This document shows, one piece after another, positions 35,636 to 44,548 of a stretch of DNA of 64,000 nt (within the stretch, counting starts at the first letter, position 1; each line of letters opens with the position of its first letter). Under the pieces are notes generated by a model. That model was not told where the DNA came from and searched no databases. It was given only the letters and a program-made list of their open reading frames with translations. The translations under genes were made by a program, and so were the position numbers. Location: positions 32,001 to 96,000 of the forward strand of contig CAVPZX010000003.1 in the NCBI GenBank assembly GCA_963710375.1. Direction: 5' to 3'. The stretch comes from Nitrospirota bacterium. Its GTDB lineage: Bacteria > Nitrospirota > Thermodesulfovibrionia > Thermodesulfovibrionales > Dissulfurispiraceae.

Positions 35636-37129
35636 TCAAGGGAAGAGGACTCCCTGGTCAATCTTCAACTGGGCAAGGCTTTTTTTAGACAGATGGAACC
35701 TGTTCGAAAAGACCCTGTTCATTACCGAGAGCAGCTGGCGGAACTTGTAGGCATCATGGTGGGAGTCTCCTTTTTGTTCGGAAGCGCGCCAGCTCTGCTC
35801 GTCCGATATGCGCAGCTCCACCCCCAACGTGTGCTGCTGGGTCTCCTTGCGGACCCGGTTCCGCATTGCGTAGGACGGCGTGCCCGGGATCATGATTTCG
35901 TTCGTATCCGCAGTGTAGTGGATAGGCAGGGTGAAGGCGATCTTGCACTGGAACTTCCGATGTCCAAGCGAAGAATGCAGGTTTCTGGCCGTGTTTACAC
36001 TGAGAGCATCGTAGAACGTCATGGCATTGGCGAGGATATCTTCTTCCCCCGGCGTTTCGTCGCTGCCTCCGCTCTGCGCAAGGCTGACCATCAGGCGCCT
36101 CACAGCTTCCCGCATGCTTTGGGGGCTATCGAAGAGGGTCTGGGTGATCGAATGGGAGGCAGTATATTCCTGAAGTATCACGCCCCTCTTCTGTAATGCA
36201 TGAAATAGCTTTAACGTGTCGTCCATGCTCTTTAGGATAAAGGTGATCGCCAGGATGTCCCGGATGTCATGAGCCTCCCCCTCCACGTCTTTACCGAGTT
36301 TGGTGAACATGCTCTCGGGGCTCTTGAGCCTGGCTTTGACCTCGACTATATCGACGGATACACCGTCTCCGCTGTTGAAGACAAGACACCCCTTGTTTTC
36401 ATCGAACATCAGTGATTCCTTTAACTTGTGGAAAAACGTCGAGACCTTGACAAAGGCCTTCTGAGCAGGCGCATTATCCGGGATATGTTTCGGATTGTCC
36501 CAGCTATAACGGTACAGGTCGTCAAGGCTCTGTCCCTGCGCTTCCAGAAAAAAACCGAGCTGGGCATAATCGTTGATATCCTGGCTGTCCTCTTCGACCG
36601 ACTTGACAAGGTGTCCCATCTTGAGTATGGAACATGCGATCTGCTGCCACCTGGCCGGGACATCAAGACCTCTGCCCTTATACCCCTGGAAAATGTGCGG
36701 ATATCTCTTCGACGAGGCGAGGAGGAAGAGATGCCGTGGGTCTTCGCTAACGATCCTCCGGAACTGCGTATTCATCAAAACCGATTCAATCTTCCCAATG
36801 GCATAAAGACAGTGCCGGTAGAGGTCGGCGTTAGGGGACTGCAGGGCGGATAGGCCTTCCAGTTGCTTTTTCACAAAGGGAAAGAGCCAGTCGAGGCAGT
36901 ACCTGTATACACGCTCGACATACCTGTTTGCCCGTTCCTTCTCACTCTCCTGGAGTTCAGCGTTGCCGAGGATATCGAACCCGCGGTTGCCCAGCATCTT
37001 AGAGGCCCTGGAAAGGGCTGTTCCGTAATCTCTCGCCTGCAGTAGCAGAAAGGGCGTCATCTCGGTCCTGTCTATGATTGAACCGAAAATCTCGTGGTGC
37101 AGTTCCTGGCTCGATTGGGTATGGTCCAT
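35636..37129 (-). CDS. Divergent RelA/SpoT-synthetase-like nucleotidyltransferase
   Basis: ARLKSPESMFTK, DIRDILAITF, ELRISD and GDSHHDAYK fall in the order of the RSH synthetase motifs. Confidence 0.65.
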   Translation of the reverse strand: MDHTQSSQELHHEIFGSIIDRTEMTPFLLLQARDYGTALSRASKMLGNRGFDILGNAELQESEKERANRYVERVYRYCLDWLFPFVKKQLEGLSALQSPNADLYRHCLYAIGKIESVLMNTQFRRIVSEDPRHLFLLASSKRYPHIFQGYKGRGLDVPARWQQIACSILKMGHLVKSVEEDSQDINDYAQLGFFLEAQGQSLDDLYRYSWDNPKHIPDNAPAQKAFVKVSTFFHKLKESLMFDENKGCLVFNSGDGVSVDIVEVKARLKSPESMFTKLGKDVEGEAHDIRDILAITFILKSMDDTLKLFHALQKRGVILQEYTASHSITQTLFDSPQSMREAVRRLMVSLAQSGGSDETPGEEDILANAMTFYDALSVNTARNLHSSLGHRKFQCKIAFTLPIHYTADTNEIMIPGTPSYAMRNRVRKETQQHTLGVELRISDEQSWRASEQKGDSHHDAYKFRQLLSVMNRVFSNRFHLSKKSLAQLKIDQGVLFP

Positions 37130-37212
37130 ATAATATGCTCTGGCAAAGGCAGCTCACCGACGGGTACATTCAGTTGTCAGTCCGCAGAACCTTATACCTA
37201 TTATAGCTAATT

Positions 37213-38511
37213 TTAGATCTTCCAGTTTTCCCGGTTAGTGACCGCCTTTCTCATGTAATCACGGATCCATCCCCTTATTGCAGGTGACAGATAAAAAACC
37301 GGATGTAGCAGATCCTCGCCGTTTTCAATTATACCTTCTTCCCTGGCAATAGCTTCCAATTGAGTTCCCGGATATATGCGTATCCCTGCCTTGAGCGTAA
37401 CGATATCAGGAGAAAGTTTATCCACGAATTCTATGCTCTGCATAACGGTCTCCTGTGTCTCCCCTGGTCCTCCAAAAAGAAGAAAGCATCCGTATTTGAT
37501 GCCGTTTGCTCTTGCAAGTCTTGCAGCTTTTCTTACATTTGCCAGCGTAAAACCTTTCCGGAGATTCCTGAGAATCAATTCGTGGCCTGAATCATTGCCT
37601 AAGCTGATGAACCTGCATCCGGACTTCCCCATGAGTTCAAAAAGTTCTTCATCACCAAATGCAGGGTTAAGTATCGCCTGCCAGTTTACTTTAATGCCTT
37701 GTGCAATAATCTCCCTGCAGAAGTTCTTTGCACCGGATATTGGAAAATTAAAGACATTGTCCACTACATAAAAGCGCCGTATATTCTTTTCCCTGTTTAG
37801 CGATGCCATTTCACTTACACAGCTGAGCATGTCCCGTGAGCGGCAGTGTTTCCCTTCGAGTAGCGGGGTCGAGCAGTAAATGCACTCCATGTGGCAGCCC
37901 CGTTTGGTTTGCACGGTGACAGAACCCGGCAACTCCCCCAAAAATTCGTGATAGGCCGTCACATCGAAGTCGCTGTAAGCCGGAGATGCCCATTGGACCG
38001 GGTCGGAAAGATACCGGAGGCCGTTAATTATGATTTGATCACCTTTCTTCCATACCGCACCAGGGACCTTCTCAAACTTACCATCCTGCATAGCAAGAGC
38101 ATCAAGAAGCAGGGGGAATGCATCTTCTCCCTCCCCGTAGATGCCGAGGTCCGCATCCAGAAAACGAAGACATCCCTCCGGATGAATGTTAAACCCGGAG
38201 CCTCCCAAAATGAGAGGGGCGTTTGTGTGGCTGCGAATTTCTGAAACAACGCCCAGAAGACTGGGGAGAAAAAAGACCGGGCTGCCCATGTCCTGGTTGT
38301 CAATATTCCGGATGGACAGCCCGACGGCATCCGGATGAAAGTCCCTGAACGTAGCTCTCAGCCTTTCTTTCCAGTCTTCAAGAAACATAAAGTCGAGCAC
38401 TACTACCTCATGGCCGCAGCGCCTCAGAGATCCCGCAACAAAGGCTGGTCCGAGCGGAAACGGCGCAACGAGGTTCATATTTCTATTTTCGGATATAAGA
38501 AGGACTCTCAT
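37213..38511 (-). CDS. B12-binding radical SAM protein
   Basis: N-terminal cobalamin-binding domain (GLSIRNIDN, ILGGSGF, GEGE); CHMECIYC motif. Confidence 0.92.
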   Translation of the reverse strand: MRVLLISENRNMNLVAPFPLGPAFVAGSLRRCGHEVVVLDFMFLEDWKERLRATFRDFHPDAVGLSIRNIDNQDMGSPVFFLPSLLGVVSEIRSHTNAPLILGGSGFNIHPEGCLRFLDADLGIYGEGEDAFPLLLDALAMQDGKFEKVPGAVWKKGDQIIINGLRYLSDPVQWASPAYSDFDVTAYHEFLGELPGSVTVQTKRGCHMECIYCSTPLLEGKHCRSRDMLSCVSEMASLNREKNIRRFYVVDNVFNFPISGAKNFCREIIAQGIKVNWQAILNPAFGDEELFELMGKSGCRFISLGNDSGHELILRNLRKGFTLANVRKAARLARANGIKYGCFLLFGGPGETQETVMQSIEFVDKLSPDIVTLKAGIRIYPGTQLEAIAREEGIIENGEDLLHPVFYLSPAIRGWIRDYMRKAVTNRENWKI

Positions 38512-38534
38512 CTCTTATATCTTATAACAAATTT

Positions 38535-38657
38535 TTAATTCTGCGTCGCTATATGTTCGTGCAGGCTTTCAACGATGTTTGCTAGGTCTAACTCGTCCAT
38601 CCAGCAATATAGTGGACTCTCACGCAGGATTTCGAGCAGTTCTGTTTTTGTAATCAT
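38535..38657 (-). CDS. Unannotated 40-aa small protein (ILRESPLY family)
   Basis: MITKTELLEILRESPLYCWMDELDLANIVESLHEHIATQN; SD-like AGGATGGTG; shares ILRESPLY with 62960..63154. Confidence 0.7.
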   Translation of the reverse strand: MITKTELLEILRESPLYCWMDELDLANIVESLHEHIATQN

Positions 38658-38681
38658 AATTCACCATCCTTGGTAATATCT

Positions 38682-38708
38682 TTATCGGGGAACTTTGTAA
38701 AAGGTTTA
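38682..38708 (-). promoter_or_regulatory. sigma28 (FliA-type) promoter
   Basis: TAAA-N15-CCCGATAA on the minus strand, 24 nt upstream of the sORF. Confidence 0.7.
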
Positions 38709-38803
38709 GGGCCGGCGAATAAATAACTCTTGCATTGAGGCGCTCAGATTTGGTTGATACGAAGGCGGGATACCTGAAAAATTTGGATTCTCTATGATAG
38801 ACT

Positions 38804-41590
38804 GTGATAATGTTGGCGCAAATTCTTAATCCGGCGAATTATTCCTTCAAGGGAATCACTCTGATCTTTCCTATGATATCGGTCGCGCTAGTGCTGCATA
38901 ACGCATGGTTATTGTATAGGGAAAGACTGAAAGCGGTGTACGTGACCTGGGCAGTGATGGTATTCACGGTTGTAGTTTGGGTGACGCCCGACTTTTTCTT
39001 CTTCAATGCTGTGCCTGAGGATCTGGCCCTGTGGTGGACTAAGGCCTCCTTTCTTGGCATTCCCTTTCTATCGTCTGCCCTGTACCATTTCGCCGTGACG
39101 CTCTGCAAGAGGTATAGCGAGAACAAAACGCGTGTATGGATCGGGTGGGCCGGTTCGGCCTTCTTTTCGGTGCTGTTCACCCAAACCAATCTTTTGATCA
39201 GTGGTTTGCATCATTATTCGTGGGGGTTTTTTACCGCATTTTCCCGACTGGCCATCCCCTTTATCCTGTTTTCCTGGCTTTATATGGGTCTCAGTCTGTT
39301 CGAGTTCGTGCAAGAGTTGAAGAGGACCGACCCCACCACTACGCAGCATCGGCGTATCAGGGCTATTGTATTCGCGCTTGGGTTAGCCTCTTTGGGAAAT
39401 ATGGATTACCTCACGACGTTTGGCGTCCCTGTCTATCCCTGCGGCGCCCTTTTGGTCTACATGGCATTACTGATCACCACATGGACTATCACGAAATACC
39501 AGCTTATAGATATCACTCCCGGGTTTGCGGCCAAGAGCATTATAGATACGATGAACGACTCGCTGATCGTCTTCGAAGAAGACGGCGTTATCCGTTTGGT
39601 GAATAACGCTGCCATTGACCTTCTTGGTCATGAGGCCAAGGAACTCCTGGGTCATAACGTTTTCGAGTTTTTTCCGGGGGAGAGGTCCCGGGAGGTATTC
39701 GATCCCAAAAGCGCGTCTGGTACGGTGCGGCATGTCGAGCTTCCGTACCGCAGGGACGACGGTCAGGAGTTGACGCTCGACATTTCGGTATCATTCATGT
39801 GGGAACGGGACCGTTTGATAGCCTGTATCTGCATACTCCGGGACGTCACACAGGAGAGGCTGGCGGCGAGGGCATTACAGCGCGCATACGAAGAGACGGA
39901 ACTCCGGGTTGTGCAGCGGACGACCGAACTGCGTCAGAGCAATGAGCAGTTAAAGGAAGAGATAGCGGAGCGCAAGCTTGTGGAAGAGGCGCTCAAGAAG
40001 GCGAAGACTGCAGCAGAAGCGGCAAATGTGGCAAAGGGAGAGTTTCTGGCTAACATGAGTCATGAAATCCGCACCCCGATGAACGGCATAATGGGGATGA
40101 CCGGCTTGCTTCTAGACACAGGGCTTTCTGAGGAGCAGAGGAACTATGCCGAGATGCTGCGCTCAAGCGGCGAGTTGTTGCTGGGCCTGATCAACGACAT
40201 CCTTGACTTCTCCAAGATAGAGGCAGGCAAACTGGAGATAGAGACAATAGAGTTTGATCTGAGAAACACGCTTGAAGAGACTGCTGAGTTTATGGCCTTG
40301 AGGGCCTATGAAAAGGGTCTTGAGTTAGTATGCCGGATAGACCCTGGTGTCCACACATTCCTTATAGGCGACCCTGGCCGGCTTCGCCAGATATTAGTGA
40401 ACCTGATAGGGAATGCCATCAAGTTCACCTCAGTGGGCGAGGTGGTTATCGAAGCAGTGACGGAATATGAGAGAGACGGTCAGGTAGCGGTGCGCTTCAA
40501 TATAAGGGATACCGGCATTGGGATACCACAGGACAAAGTACCTTTATTGTTTGACAGTTTTCAGCAGGTTGATGCCTCGACATCGAGGAAGTTTGGAGGC
40601 AGCGGCCTAGGGTTGGCAATATCGAAACGTCTGGTTGAGCTAATGAACGGCGGGATAGGAGTTGAAAGCATAGAAGGGAAGGGTTCCAACTTCTGGTTTA
40701 CAGCAGTGTTCGATAAGGGGAGTCAGCCGGACAGTAGTAAAGTGCCTCCATTGGCCGATATCAGCGGGGTGAGGATACTGTCAGTAGACGACAATGCGGT
40801 GAACCGCATTGTAATTGCAGAGCAGATGAAGTCGTGGGGAGTGCGCAATGCCGAGGCCGGGGGAGCTTTAAAGGCGATGGAGATGCTCCATGCTGCTCAA
40901 GCTGAAGGGGACCCTTTTCGGGTTGTAGTTACTGATATGCAAATGCCTGGGATGGATGGCGAAGCCCTTGCCAGGGCCATCAAGGCAGACCCAGTTTTGA
41001 GGGATACTTTGCTGATTATGCTGACATCCAGTGGAGTGAGGGGAGATTCAAAGAGGTTTGCGAGCCTTGGATTTTCTGGATATCTAACCAAACCTGTAAG
41101 GATGTTCCAGCTGCACGACTGCATAGCCGCAGTCCTTGGTGGGAGCAGTCTGCATGAAAAGGAGGAAGCCGCTATTATTACCGGACACCGTCTTCGCGAG
41201 GCATCCAGGCAGAATGCGCGCATTCTACTGGTGGAGGATAACAGAGTGAATAGACTGGTGGCAGAGGGCATTCTGGGCAAATTGGGGTTTATTGCTGACA
41301 CCGCTGACAATGGCCAGCAGGCGATCAATATGCTGGAAGCCGCTTCTTACGACATAGTCTTTATGGATGTGCAGATGCCTGTTATGGATGGGTATCAGGC
41401 TACCATGGCTATCCGGGGCGGCAAGACAAAGGCAGCGAATCCTAATGTACCTATTATTGCAATGACAGCCCATGCCATGATGGGTGACAGGGAGAAATGC
41501 CTGCAAAGCGGGATGGACGATTATATCTCAAAGCCGATCTCGCCGAGGAAATTGTCCAAGGTGCTCGAAAAATGGCTGCCACAGGCGTAG
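38804..41590 (+). CDS. Hybrid sensor histidine kinase (7TM, PAS, HisKA, HATPase, two REC domains)
   Basis: [31 protein letters not shown] and GSGLGL motifs; two D-x-QMP receiver domains. Confidence 0.95.
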
Positions 41591-41687
41591 ACCCTTGAGG
41601 CCTGATAAACGCAGTTGAGAGCGTCCCAATACGGTATTATTAATAATCCTTTTCATGATATAATTTTCTTATCAAAGGAGGACATTC

Positions 41688-42068
41688 TTGGAAGAACTAA
41701 GAATATTGGTAGTAGACGATGAATATATAACGCGCATTTTTATTAAGAGTTGCCTGCAAATGTCTTTCCCGGGCTGCATAATTATTGAGGCGGCTTCCGG
41801 ACAAGCTGCATTAGAAAAGATTAAGAGCGAGCCATTCCATATTGTGCTGTGCGACTGGCAATTGCCGGATATAAGTGGGGTCGAAATACTCGAATGGGTC
41901 AGGGTCGCATCGGATACAAAAAATATGCCCTTCATGATGATAACTGGCGATAGCAACAGGGAACACATTACCCAAGCGATATCGCTTGGGGTCTCGGGTT
42001 ATGTCATCAAGCCATTGGACTGCGTCAGCCTGTCACAGCGTGTCATAGCAGCATTGAGCCCAAAGTAG
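41688..42068 (+). CDS. Single-domain CheY-like response regulator
   Basis: ILVVDD, CDWQLP and YVIKP motifs. Confidence 0.9.
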   Translation: MEELRILVVDDEYITRIFIKSCLQMSFPGCIIIEAASGQAALEKIKSEPFHIVLCDWQLPDISGVEILEWVRVASDTKNMPFMMITGDSNREHITQAISLGVSGYVIKPLDCVSLSQRVIAALSPK

Positions 42069-42112: not shown

Positions 42113-44548
42113 TCATTCGATGCTTACCGGAGAAATATGCCATATCTTTTCAGCATACTCACCGATAGCCCTGTCGCTCGAAAATTTGCCTGAACGCGCG
42201 ACATTGAGGATGGCCATTCTTGTCCACCTGTCTTTGTCCTTGTAGACATTGGCTACGTTCTCCTGACAACTGATATATGAGGCATAATCAGCCAGGACAT
42301 AAAACCTGTCCCCTTCCAAAAGGGTTCTGATAATCGGATGAAAGAGACCCTGGTTTTCAGGAGAAAAGTGGCCTTCGAGTATTTGATTGATGGCTTGGCG
42401 AAGCTCCCCGTCAGTCTCATAATATTCCTGAGGGTTGTATCCTGAACTCATAGCCATGATTTCTTCAGCTTTAAGCCCGAAGAGAAAGAAGTTCTCAGCA
42501 CCCACCTGTTCCCTTATTTCGACGTTCGCCCCATCAAGTGTCCCGATGGTTAAGGCTCCATTCAGGGTGAATTTCATATTGCCGGTCCCTGAAGCCTCAA
42601 GTCCGGCAGTCGAAATCTGTTCGGACAGATCTGCTGCAGGGATAATACGCGCGGCCAGGGAAACGTTGTAGTTGGGGACAAATATTACCTGCAATTTCTC
42701 CCTTACAATGGGATTGGCTGCTATCATTTCTCCAACAGCGTTTATCAGTTTGATAATCAGTTTGCAGAGGTAGTATCCGGGCGCTGCCTTTCCTCCAAAC
42801 AGGATTGTTCTTGGGGTGAATGTCTCGTCCACTCTTCCTTCTCTGATCCTGTTGTAAAGGGTTATAGCATGTAAAACGTTCAGCATCTGCCGCTTGTATT
42901 CGTGCAGCCTTTTCACCTGACAATCCAGGAGATGCTGGTGACGAAATGACAATTTAGCGTTCAATGCAAGATAGTTGGACAAGCCGACCTTATTCAGTTC
43001 CTTGACCTCACGGAAACGCTTAATGAATTCACTATCATCGGCAAGAGGTTCGAGCTTACTCAGTTCATCAAGATCTTTTGTCCACAAACGTCCTATGGCT
43101 TCAGTTATCAATCCGGCAAGTGGGCGGTTTGCATCCAACAGCCATCGTCTCGGCGTTATGCCGTTGGTCACATTTTGGAATTTTTCAGGAGTCATAATGT
43201 AAAAAGGATTGAACACTTTTTCCTTTAAAATACGGGAATGAAGCTCTGAAACACCATTTACGGTATGGCTTCCCACTATTGCCAGACGGGCCATGTTCAC
43301 CCACCGCTCACCCTCCCCGGTTATGAGGGCCATTTTCGTCTTGAGATCGTGGTCGCCAGGGAATTCTGCGTCAACCTGTATCAAAAATCTTCTGTCAATT
43401 TCCTGAATGATCTGTAGGTGGCGCGGTAAAAGATGTCCCATAAGACCTTCTGACCATACTTCGAGGGCTTCCGGCAAGACCGTATGATTGGTATAGGCAA
43501 AGGTTTTAGTTGTTATGTCCCAGGAATCTTCCCATCCAATACTTTCCTCATCGACAAGTATCCTCATCAGCTCTGCAATAGCTATGGAAGGGTGTGTATC
43601 GTTGAGCTGAACGGCAACATTATCAGGGAACTCTTTATAGGTTTTATGGAATTTCCTGTATCTTCTGATGATATCTTTTAATGTGGCCGCTACAAAGAAA
43701 TACTGCTGCTTGAGACGCAGTTCCTTTCCGGCAACCGATTGGTCGTCGGGGTAAAGCACTTTGGAGATGTTTTCGCTGTTGTTTTTGTTCTCCACTGCCT
43801 TGATATAATCGCCGCTGTTGAAATACTCAAGATCAAATTCACGGCTTGACTTCGCAGACCATAGACGTAGAGTATTGACAGTATCGTTGTGATACCCGGG
43901 CACCGGATAGTCGTAAGCCATGGCCATGACCTCCTCGGTGTCTGTCCATACCATGCGTAACCGGCCGCTTCCGTAATTAATCGAATTTACCTTGCCGCAG
44001 AACTGGACAGGGTACAATACTTCCGGCCTTGGAAATTCCCACTGGCTCCCGTATCTAAGCCAGTTATCCGGGATTTCAATCTGATAACCATTTTTGATCT
44101 TTTGTAAAAAAATGCCATACTCATACCTTATGCCATACCCATAAGCCGGATATTCAAGTGTGGCCAGTGAGTCAAGAAAACATGCGGCAAGCCTGCCAAG
44201 GCCGCCGTTACCTAGGCCCGCGTCCCATTCAAGCTCTAAAATATCATCATATGACAGCCCGAAGGCGTTAAATGTCTTCTCATGTTCTTCAAATATGCCG
44301 ATATTACTGATATAGCTTCCCAAAAGCCTGCCCATCAGAAATTCCAGCGAGAGATAATATAGCCTTTTTGCTTCAACGTCGTAATAACGCTGCTGGGTTT
44401 TGATCCACTGCTCAACAATGCAATCCCTTACGGACAAAATAGTCGCTTCAAACTTGTCTCTCTGAGTAGCAGAGTATGTATCTTTGGCAAGAGAGTAGGT
44501 AAGGTGGTCCATGAGGGATTCTTGAAACGGTTTCTGACACTGTGCCAT
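42113..44548 (-). CDS. glgP: Glycogen/starch phosphorylase
   Basis: GLGNGGLGRLAAC, LNDTHP, YTNHT and EASGTGNMKF (PLP lysine) motifs. Confidence 0.97.
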   Translation of the reverse strand: MAQCQKPFQESLMDHLTYSLAKDTYSATQRDKFEATILSVRDCIVEQWIKTQQRYYDVEAKRLYYLSLEFLMGRLLGSYISNIGIFEEHEKTFNAFGLSYDDILELEWDAGLGNGGLGRLAACFLDSLATLEYPAYGYGIRYEYGIFLQKIKNGYQIEIPDNWLRYGSQWEFPRPEVLYPVQFCGKVNSINYGSGRLRMVWTDTEEVMAMAYDYPVPGYHNDTVNTLRLWSAKSSREFDLEYFNSGDYIKAVENKNNSENISKVLYPDDQSVAGKELRLKQQYFFVAATLKDIIRRYRKFHKTYKEFPDNVAVQLNDTHPSIAIAELMRILVDEESIGWEDSWDITTKTFAYTNHTVLPEALEVWSEGLMGHLLPRHLQIIQEIDRRFLIQVDAEFPGDHDLKTKMALITGEGERWVNMARLAIVGSHTVNGVSELHSRILKEKVFNPFYIMTPEKFQNVTNGITPRRWLLDANRPLAGLITEAIGRLWTKDLDELSKLEPLADDSEFIKRFREVKELNKVGLSNYLALNAKLSFRHQHLLDCQVKRLHEYKRQMLNVLHAITLYNRIREGRVDETFTPRTILFGGKAAPGYYLCKLIIKLINAVGEMIAANPIVREKLQVIFVPNYNVSLAARIIPAADLSEQISTAGLEASGTGNMKFTLNGALTIGTLDGANVEIREQVGAENFFLFGLKAEEIMAMSSGYNPQEYYETDGELRQAINQILEGHFSPENQGLFHPIIRTLLEGDRFYVLADYASYISCQENVANVYKDKDRWTRMAILNVARSGKFSSDRAIGEYAEKIWHISPVSIE

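Follow-up and report, generated by a model that had tools for sequence, protein, structure and literature searches.

A RelA/SpoT-fold protein with a changed acceptor site in a Nitrospirota genome: a putative stand-alone pyrophosphokinase and its variable neighbours

Results

Organization of the locus

The stretch of DNA analysed here, hereafter the window, comprises 64,000 nucleotides of a Nitrospirota genome (G000:C3:32001-96000, where G000 is the source genome and C a contig; L denotes a homologue locus, and the remaining G numbers denote other genomes). Its main subject is NT, a 497-aa protein with the fold of the RelA/SpoT homologues (RSH) that resembles the small alarmone synthetases (SAS). 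NT is the last gene of a run on the minus strand, which starts with a sigma28-type promoter box and continues with a 40-aa open reading frame (ORF), designated sORF, and with a gene for a B12-binding radical S-adenosylmethionine enzyme, designated rSAM (Table 1). The box is separated from sORF by 24 nt, sORF from rSAM by 23 nt and rSAM from NT by 83 nt, and no terminator was seen at the gene ends between the three genes. The initial annotation had regarded them as one motility-linked module in which the RSH-like enzyme produces a non-canonical alarmone or modified nucleotide, with possible methylation by the radical SAM enzyme.

Table 1. Features at the NT locus (window coordinates)
Feature	Position	Strand	Basis or remark
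NT, divergent RelA/SpoT-fold synthetase	35636..37129	-	N-terminal helical domain (~aa 25-240) and SAS-like C-terminal domain with two insertions
SAS-like catalytic domain of NT, aa 215-497	35639..36487	-	AlphaFold2 predicted local distance difference test (pLDDT) 85.3; RelP/RelQ best matches; alignment columns
Key residues of the NT catalytic domain			R267, K269, K277, D291, H390-x-K392-x-Q394, E438, R440, H458, Y461
TATAAT, -76 from NT start	37200..37205	-	likely NT's own sigma70-type -10 element
rSAM, 432 aa, nearest to TIGR04072	37213..38511	-	PF02310 and PF04055 above cut-off; not a conserved neighbour of NT
sORF, 40 aa, narrow family	38535..38657	-	homologues, dN/dS; paralogue at G000:C2:617628
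Sigma28-type box TAAA-N15-CCCGATAA	38682..38708	-	identical 27-mer at G000:C6:43560; 25/27 identical in L074
Remnant, one end of an inverted-repeat element	38709..38753	.	adjoins the TAAA of the sigma28 box and marks the junction of a rearrangement
Hybrid histidine kinase and receiver protein	38804..42068	+	between glgP and the sigma28 box; absent here in L044 and L074
Glycogen phosphorylase glgP	42113..44548	-	next gene upstream of NT in both of the closest syntenic relatives

The contig support of this arrangement was examined in four of 16 sequencing runs. One contig of run X3, which may be a source of the window, covers positions 35738-38847 with zero differences, and contigs of runs X4 and X5, from the study that also includes two possible source runs, bridge the NT-rSAM junction and the rSAM-sORF-box junctions. 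An assembly artefact at the locus is unlikely, because the contigs of these three runs carry the arrangement. Besides FliA, flagellin and nifH, G000 has one long Rel (703 aa), and the named close homologues belong to Thermodesulfovibrionales or, more broadly, Nitrospirota.

Fold and family of NT

A total of 677 homologues of NT were found among 7992 scored candidates, and the best 120 share 71-96% identity over nearly the full length. Clustering at the 50% level gives one main full-length cluster and two outliers with 36% and 31% identity. The ratio of nonsynonymous to synonymous substitution rates (dN/dS) of 0.12-0.15 indicates purifying selection. The only Pfam domain recognizable in NT is RelA_SpoT (PF04607), which scores 19.7 bits, below its gathering score of 27 bits; the distant homologue P0126 reaches 25.9 bits, and weak matches to the same domain are present in 82 of 88 members of the family. 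HD, TGS and ACT domains are missing from the Pfam assignment of NT, so that the absence of an HD hydrolase noted in the initial annotation holds. This is the domain content of the SAS class, which is defined by a synthetase domain without HD, TGS or ACT (PMC3153485). The passages of PMC3153485 and PMC10434055 that define this class and the Syn motifs do not describe the NT family.

The fold was assessed with structural models. An AlphaFold2 model of aa 215-497 built from 88 alignment rows has the pLDDT given in Table 1; in the full-length model, built from 48 rows, the pLDDT of the C-terminal half is below 50, and Foldseek gave no matches with that model. With the C-terminal domain model, the top Foldseek matches are RelQ and RelP (E 7.6e-5 to 8e-4, probability 1.0). 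VIA-align ranks the same proteins highest, with 6fgk at Z 9.4 (root-mean-square deviation (rmsd) 4.0, 163 residues aligned), 5dec at Z 9.1 and 6ewz at Z 9.0. RSH proteins occupy each of the top nine rows, the long Rel, RelA and SpoT enzymes following RelQ and RelP, and other Pol-beta proteins do not exceed Z 5.4. NT is thus, on these models, a genuine RelA/SpoT (Pol-beta-type RSH) fold protein, as initially suggested. A sequence search of PDB with NT or its alignment gave no RSH match, and a search started from P0126 returned P0126 alone.

With RelQ/SAS1 (5dec, 5ded) and RelP/SAS2 (6fgk, 6ewz) NT shares the fold over 163-166 residues at an rmsd of 3.8-4.2, as well as the absence of an HD domain. 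It differs from them in the low identity of 15-16%, in an extra N-terminal helical domain of ~240 aa, in insertions of ~55 and 32 aa, and in the motifs, where KxQ replaces SxH, T replaces the Syn2 R and ELRIS replaces ExQIRT. The N-terminal half is helical in the model and probably regulatory. Its similarity to the helical subdomain of Enzyme I and EI-Ntr of the phosphotransferase system (Z 5.1-5.8) was rejected as helical-bundle background, and no Atlas match of at least 0.9 was found for this domain.

The resemblance of NT to the families TIGR04552 and TIGR04562, which the initial annotation had named, is real and distant. The two profiles score 72.5 and 73.8 bits on NT, below the curated cut-offs of 125 and 140, with an E value of ~1e-20 (best ~4e-21), and the match is found in 48 of 48 family members. 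Profile positions 130-355 align to NT aa 230-474, whereas the first 129 positions are unmatched; the profiles span ~355 positions as against the 497 aa of NT, and the taxa differ. Look-alikes of NT at 0.92 in the Atlas come from Myxococcota and Bdellovibrionota. Among 101 genomes from the phylum to which G367 belongs, no TIGR04552 member exceeding the cut-off was detected. Literature searches on TIGR04552 and TIGR04562 gave no functional study of the enzyme, and searches at the level of titles and the beginnings of abstracts listed nothing on the NT family; the mentions of TIGR04552 found concern MXAN_4858 of M. xanthus and one row of a mutation table in Bdellovibrio (PMC9888234).

The active site

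Conservation was counted over 200 aligned NT rows, which overlap and are closely related; the two outliers were omitted. The residues R267, K269, S273, K277, D291, N383, H390, K392, Q394, E438, R440, H457, H458 and Y461 are invariant in all rows, and K462 is kept in 195. In sequence order, the motifs are ARLKSPESMFTK, D288-x-x-D291, ELRISD and H458-x-x-YK. The Syn1 R-x-K...K, the Syn2 D, the Syn4 E and the distal H..YK are therefore all present, and the initial observation of RSH motifs in the correct order is confirmed. The R, K, K and the D, E positions are retained even in the 36% homologue P0126. We take R267, K269 and K277 to be the ATP-binding residues and D291 and E438 to be the metal ligands, as in RSH enzymes generally.

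Canonical Rel domains, of which 31 were taken from this phylum for comparison, display R-x-K...K, D-x-x-x-x-R, N-x-Y-Q-S-L-H, E-x-Q-I-R and H-W-x-Y-K. The order of the motifs is kept in NT, and the spacings, measured on the Rel of G000 itself, are similar (24 aa in NT versus 23 aa from R to D, 20 versus 19 from E to H). In NT, H390-x-K-x-Q takes the place of Y-x-S-x-H, T296 that of the Syn2 R, and R440 and S442 those of Q and R. Across the NT family the Syn3, Syn2 and Syn4 positions read KxQ, T/S and R-I-S/T, unlike the SxH, Syn2 R and Q-I-R of (p)ppGpp synthetases. The position of H390, K392 and Q394 at Syn3 was inferred from the spacing and the DSSP assignment of the model, in which a strand begins at F393-Q394 behind a loop of low confidence. 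Two insertions lie near the active site: the distance from the D to the G-loop is 99 aa versus 44, and from the G-loop to the E 48 aa versus 16. According to PMC12226406, guanosine-specific enzymes carry SxH/AVR/IR and adenosine-specific enzymes GxN/RYT/YH. The KxQ/AIT/IS of NT matches neither signature, and NT does not carry the motifs of the (p)ppApp synthetases Tas1 and Apk. The proposal of a non-canonical product is thereby kept as a possibility, with acceptor positions altered in Syn2, Syn3 and Syn4.

The promoters, sORF and the rearrangements of the locus

The consensus of sigma28 promoters is TAAA-N15-(G/C)CCGATA. The box described in the initial annotation is present at positions 38708-38682 and is the sole match in the window (chance 0.22). 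On its own it is weak, because 20 of 100 shuffled sequences also contain one. The box is credible because the pattern is enriched and precedes flagellin genes: TAAA-N16-CCGATAA occurs 13 times versus 3 for the reversed control in G000, 13 versus 3 in G369 and 7 versus 4 in G368, and it is found upstream of flagellin in G000 (once) and in G368. The window box is thus an intergenic consensus box in a FliA-positive genome, as expected of a sigma28 regulon.

The small ORF proved to be a real gene, as proposed: it evolves under purifying selection, with a dN/dS of 0.31 and 0.08 against two homologues, and its family comprises 11 further homologues of 75-90% identity (12 database entries including itself), with paralogues in G000 and G368. 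It was not found in 150 other genomes of the class; a metagenome scan confirmed at least one locus, its range being under-sampled. Five copies have flanks. Those of the window and of L074 precede NT and carry the box, whereas those at L128, L170 and G000:C2 have neither. The simplest reading is that sORF encodes a short helical accessory protein travelling with the promoter. A role as substrate of rSAM in the biosynthesis of a ribosomally synthesized and post-translationally modified peptide was considered and dropped, since the adjacency is unique to the window and the sORFs of L074, L128, L170 and G000:C2 have no rSAM orthologue beside them. A second sORF subfamily (G000:C2:617527-617628 and L170:1501-1630) shares the upstream TGGTATAAACT, a sigma70-like extended -10 and not a sigma28 box.

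Comparison with the closest relatives gives a series of gene orders. In L044, the closest orthologue (90%), glgP is followed after 28 nt by NT, without box or sORF. In L074 the order is glgP-box-sORF-NT. In the window it is glgP, the receiver and histidine kinase genes, the repeat end, the box, sORF, rSAM and NT. Over the box and sORF, the 174 nt that precede NT in both the window and L074 are 88.5% identical, the synonymous distance between the two loci being ~0.45. The homology of the window with L074 and with contig C6 of G000 starts exactly at 38708; the sigma28 box belongs to a movable piece. The C6 copy of the box region (G000:C6:43560-43602) is 43 nt long, 27 nt identical and 16 more similar; it precedes a histidine kinase gene by 187 nt, and sORF is missing there. 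The inverted-repeat element whose remnant abuts the box is non-coding, 171-206 bp long and present in 24 full copies in G000, mostly with TA-rich flanks, and resembles miniature inverted-repeat transposable elements; its ends may be similar to IS5-type repeats. The 5′ end of the neighbouring seven-transmembrane hybrid kinase gene (38785-38900) is 85-89% identical to G000:C3:348037-348152 and C1:3251-3375, which suggests a recently expanded kinase family.

NT itself appears to have its own promoter. TA(T/C)AAT is found within 100 nt of the NT start in 41 of 79 orthologue loci versus 40 of 368 control ORFs (41 of 78 without L099, whose 5′ end is missing and for which the wrong stretch had been scored; L083 was omitted as too short). 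The window element lies at -76 in the rSAM-NT spacer, and several orthologues have theirs at -72 to -82; L074 has none. A sigma28 box was found in 1 of the 79 loci, and a sigma54 box upstream of NT in none of them.

The radical SAM enzyme

The best family match of rSAM is TIGR04072 (rSAM_ladder_B12), a lipid-biosynthesis family (307.7 bits over positions 1-411 of 443; cut-off 360), and it also matches TsrM (PDB 6wte, E 3.8e-34). All three share B12-binding and radical SAM domains with CxxxCxxC. Differing from TIGR04072, rSAM scores below the cut-off and lies here outside any lipid cluster. Its relatives of 38-41% identity adjoin acyltransferase and ketoreductase genes, and paralogues of 35-37% adjoin type III polyketide synthase (PKS) genes; the family match is in line with these neighbours of distant relatives. 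One such paralogue (G000:C4:280551-283042, L125, L126) stands directly before a type III PKS gene and is kept in G000, G368 and G369; the pair possibly forms a pathway to a methylated alkylresorcinol-type lipid.

Linkage to NT was examined in two overlapping sets, 29 loci with 1.5-kb flanks and 80 loci with flanks of up to 6 kb, some cut by contig ends. In neither set does an rSAM orthologue adjoin NT (0 of 29 and 0 of 80), the sole rSAM-type match near NT being a partial one of 28% on the opposite strand in L048. A close match to rSAM (E of 1e-90 or lower, five candidates scored per genome) occurs in 2 of 37 NT genomes including G000. G369, to which L044 belongs, has its rSAM orthologue (82-83%) on another contig just upstream of a DAHP synthase gene. 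The syntenic site in G000 (C3:21230-25639), outside the window, carries other genes; those within C3:21227-25604 are another radical SAM gene, two ORFs of 371 aa and 127 aa, the latter membrane-protein-like, and a flagellin-like gene of 268 aa. In G288, the second further genome in which both genes were found, NT and rSAM are on separate contigs, and rSAM follows plsY and queC. We regard rSAM as a probable class B methylase that acts on a lipid or small metabolite and has no relation to NT.

Distribution and neighbours of NT

NT occurs in 37 of 301 genomes of the phylum, and also in Methylococcales, in a Syntrophobacterales bin and in a deltaproteobacterial bin. Genes of the P-II, AmtB, nif or nitrate/nitrite reductase type lie in 17 of 80 NT loci versus 126 of 3074 stretches of the same size in G000 (4.1%); the count was 20 before three unverified molybdopterin matches (L080, L098, L100) were removed. 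The nifH gene is present in 26 of 37 NT genomes versus 76 of 264 without NT. The cross-tabulations of NT with nifH and FliA were made by hand, assuming that the same handles denote the same genomes, and related genomes inflate the tests. Genes for glgP or isoamylase-type enzymes lie near NT in 8 of 80 loci from two unrelated lineages (glgP in L044, L045, L074 and L078; isoamylase-type in L083, L105, L116 and L117). FliA was found in 23 of 37 NT genomes versus 160 of 264 others (183 of 301 overall) and is thus not enriched; 14 of the 37 show none. The general link to motility put forward in the initial annotation is therefore not borne out.

NT is split into frameshifted pieces in G197:C47:50588-52081 and G215:C20:39079-40558, which may be pseudogenes or assembly errors. 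The nifH matches of G048, G098 and G290 (genus g17) each hold one in-frame stop (TAA, TAA and TAG, respectively).

Discussion

We propose, with a probability of roughly 0.6 (0.62), that NT is a stand-alone, Mg-ATP-dependent pyrophosphokinase with the SAS fold, and that the box, sORF and rSAM are variable neighbours brought in by recent rearrangements. Judged from its conserved residues, NT is likely to be active with a changed acceptor site. R267, K269 and K277 would bind ATP, and Mg would be coordinated by D291 and E438. The enzyme would transfer the beta-gamma pyrophosphate to the 3′-OH of an acceptor nucleotide with release of AMP. Given the rebuilt acceptor site, (p)ppGpp is one possible product and a different pyrophosphorylated nucleotide another. 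The N-terminal domain would regulate this activity. Transcription is likely to start from the TATAAT promoter, to which sigma28 read-through may add in this lineage only, and the probable role of NT, alongside the long Rel, is in signalling nitrogen or carbon starvation.

Several findings weigh against this proposal. An hhalign comparison of NT with the 31 canonical Rel domains gave a non-significant E value of 0.14. Three residues invariant in those domains (Syn2 R, Syn3 S/H, Syn4 Q/R) are altered in NT, and the Syn3 register was deduced from spacing and strand position. The homologues are close to each other (62-96%), so that the invariance counts overstate their independence. Seven of the 17 nitrogen-linked loci share one Methylococcales-type arrangement, and within NT-bearing families the nifH excess is modest (25 of 36 versus 33 of 69; 16 of 25 versus 17 of 39 in the largest family, p 0.13). 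Sigma28 read-through is possible in this strain, because no terminator separates the three genes. Finally, a contig of run X6 (depth 2.5) speaks for the variable presence of rSAM, since it runs from 38500 directly to 37207, leaves out 1292 nt of the gene and has a junction that resembles that of L074, but the 39 letters at this joint fail to separate gain from loss of rSAM.

A more far-reaching version would make the NT family a third RSH specificity class, in which the invariant H-x-K-x-Q selects an acceptor other than G or A nucleotides, the product is a new nitrogen-starvation signal in Thermodesulfovibrionia and methanotrophs, and, in this lineage, a mobile sigma28 promoter-sORF cassette wires it to late flagellar expression. 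We regard this version as rather unlikely.

It is also conceivable, though unlikely, that NT alone was recruited to the sigma28 regulon in a narrow lineage through the box-sORF cassette, with an alarmone-like signal tied to late flagella and rSAM as a passenger. The order box, sORF and NT is kept in L074, which lacks TATAAT, and according to bioRxiv 10.64898/2026.08.28.747804 the distantly related TIGR04552 gene MXAN_4858 of M. xanthus lies near the gliding G1 cluster, and insertions in this gene resemble gliding mutants. However, sORF and the box precede NT in only 1 of 80 loci, L044 has neither in spite of its 90% identity, the remaining sORF copies lie away from NT, and the window retains its own TATAAT. 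In G368, which carries L074, no FliA was found (completeness not given), yet the flagellin gene of G368 has a sigma28 box.

With the R of Syn2, the SxH of Syn3 and the Q/R of Syn4 changed, NT could be a nucleotide-binding pseudo-enzyme. A catalytically dead RSH fold, serving as sensor or scaffold through the binding of ATP or (p)ppGpp, would also fit the two large insertions near the active site. We consider it decidedly unlikely, as the putative metal ligands and the three ATP-binding basic residues are invariant, P0126 included, and active (p)ppApp synthetases also differ at syn2-4 in the account given in PMC12226406.

It is improbable that NT is a toxic SAS that acts in a toxin-antitoxin or defence module, as a (p)ppApp synthetase or by pyrophosphorylating tRNA, and is restrained by its N-terminus or by sORF. 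Such a module would suit the patchy distribution of NT, whose close copies occur in Nitrospirota, Methylococcales and other groups, and the small upstream ORF in two genomes. Tas1/Apk2 and CapRel/FaRel2 share with NT the RSH fold, non-canonical syn2-4 and T at the last Syn2 position, as in the RYT of Apk (PMC12226406). They differ in that NT has neither RYT, GxN and YH nor an immunity gene or mobile context, and they score much lower (Z of 4.9 for CapRel, 4.8 for Tas1 and 3.8 for FaRel2, versus 9.0-9.4 for RelP/RelQ). NT is a single-copy gene with housekeeping neighbours; no conserved partner or antitoxin gene was found beside it in 80 loci, although a fused antitoxin is conceivable, and no match was found in PADLOC or in 50,697 phage and 72,556 plasmid records.

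The sigma28-controlled three-gene pathway of the initial annotation is very improbable: the shared strand, the short gaps, the credible box and the contigs of three runs speak for it, but no conserved linkage was found, nothing points to methylation of a nucleotide by rSAM, whose relatives stand beside lipid and polyketide genes, and the adjacency is most likely a recent reshuffle, an accidental operon look-alike, because rSAM is absent beside NT in the 80 other loci. The module matters little because it does not hold.

The putative pyrophosphokinase NT thus represents a compact and strongly conserved RSH variant that lies under every curated cut-off. Its locus is a clear case of an operon look-alike that arises where a promoter cassette and the gene of an unrelated enzyme come together. 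The acceptor site of the family is unlike the ppGpp and ppApp signatures, and NT ties TIGR04552 and TIGR04562 to the alarmone-synthetase fold.

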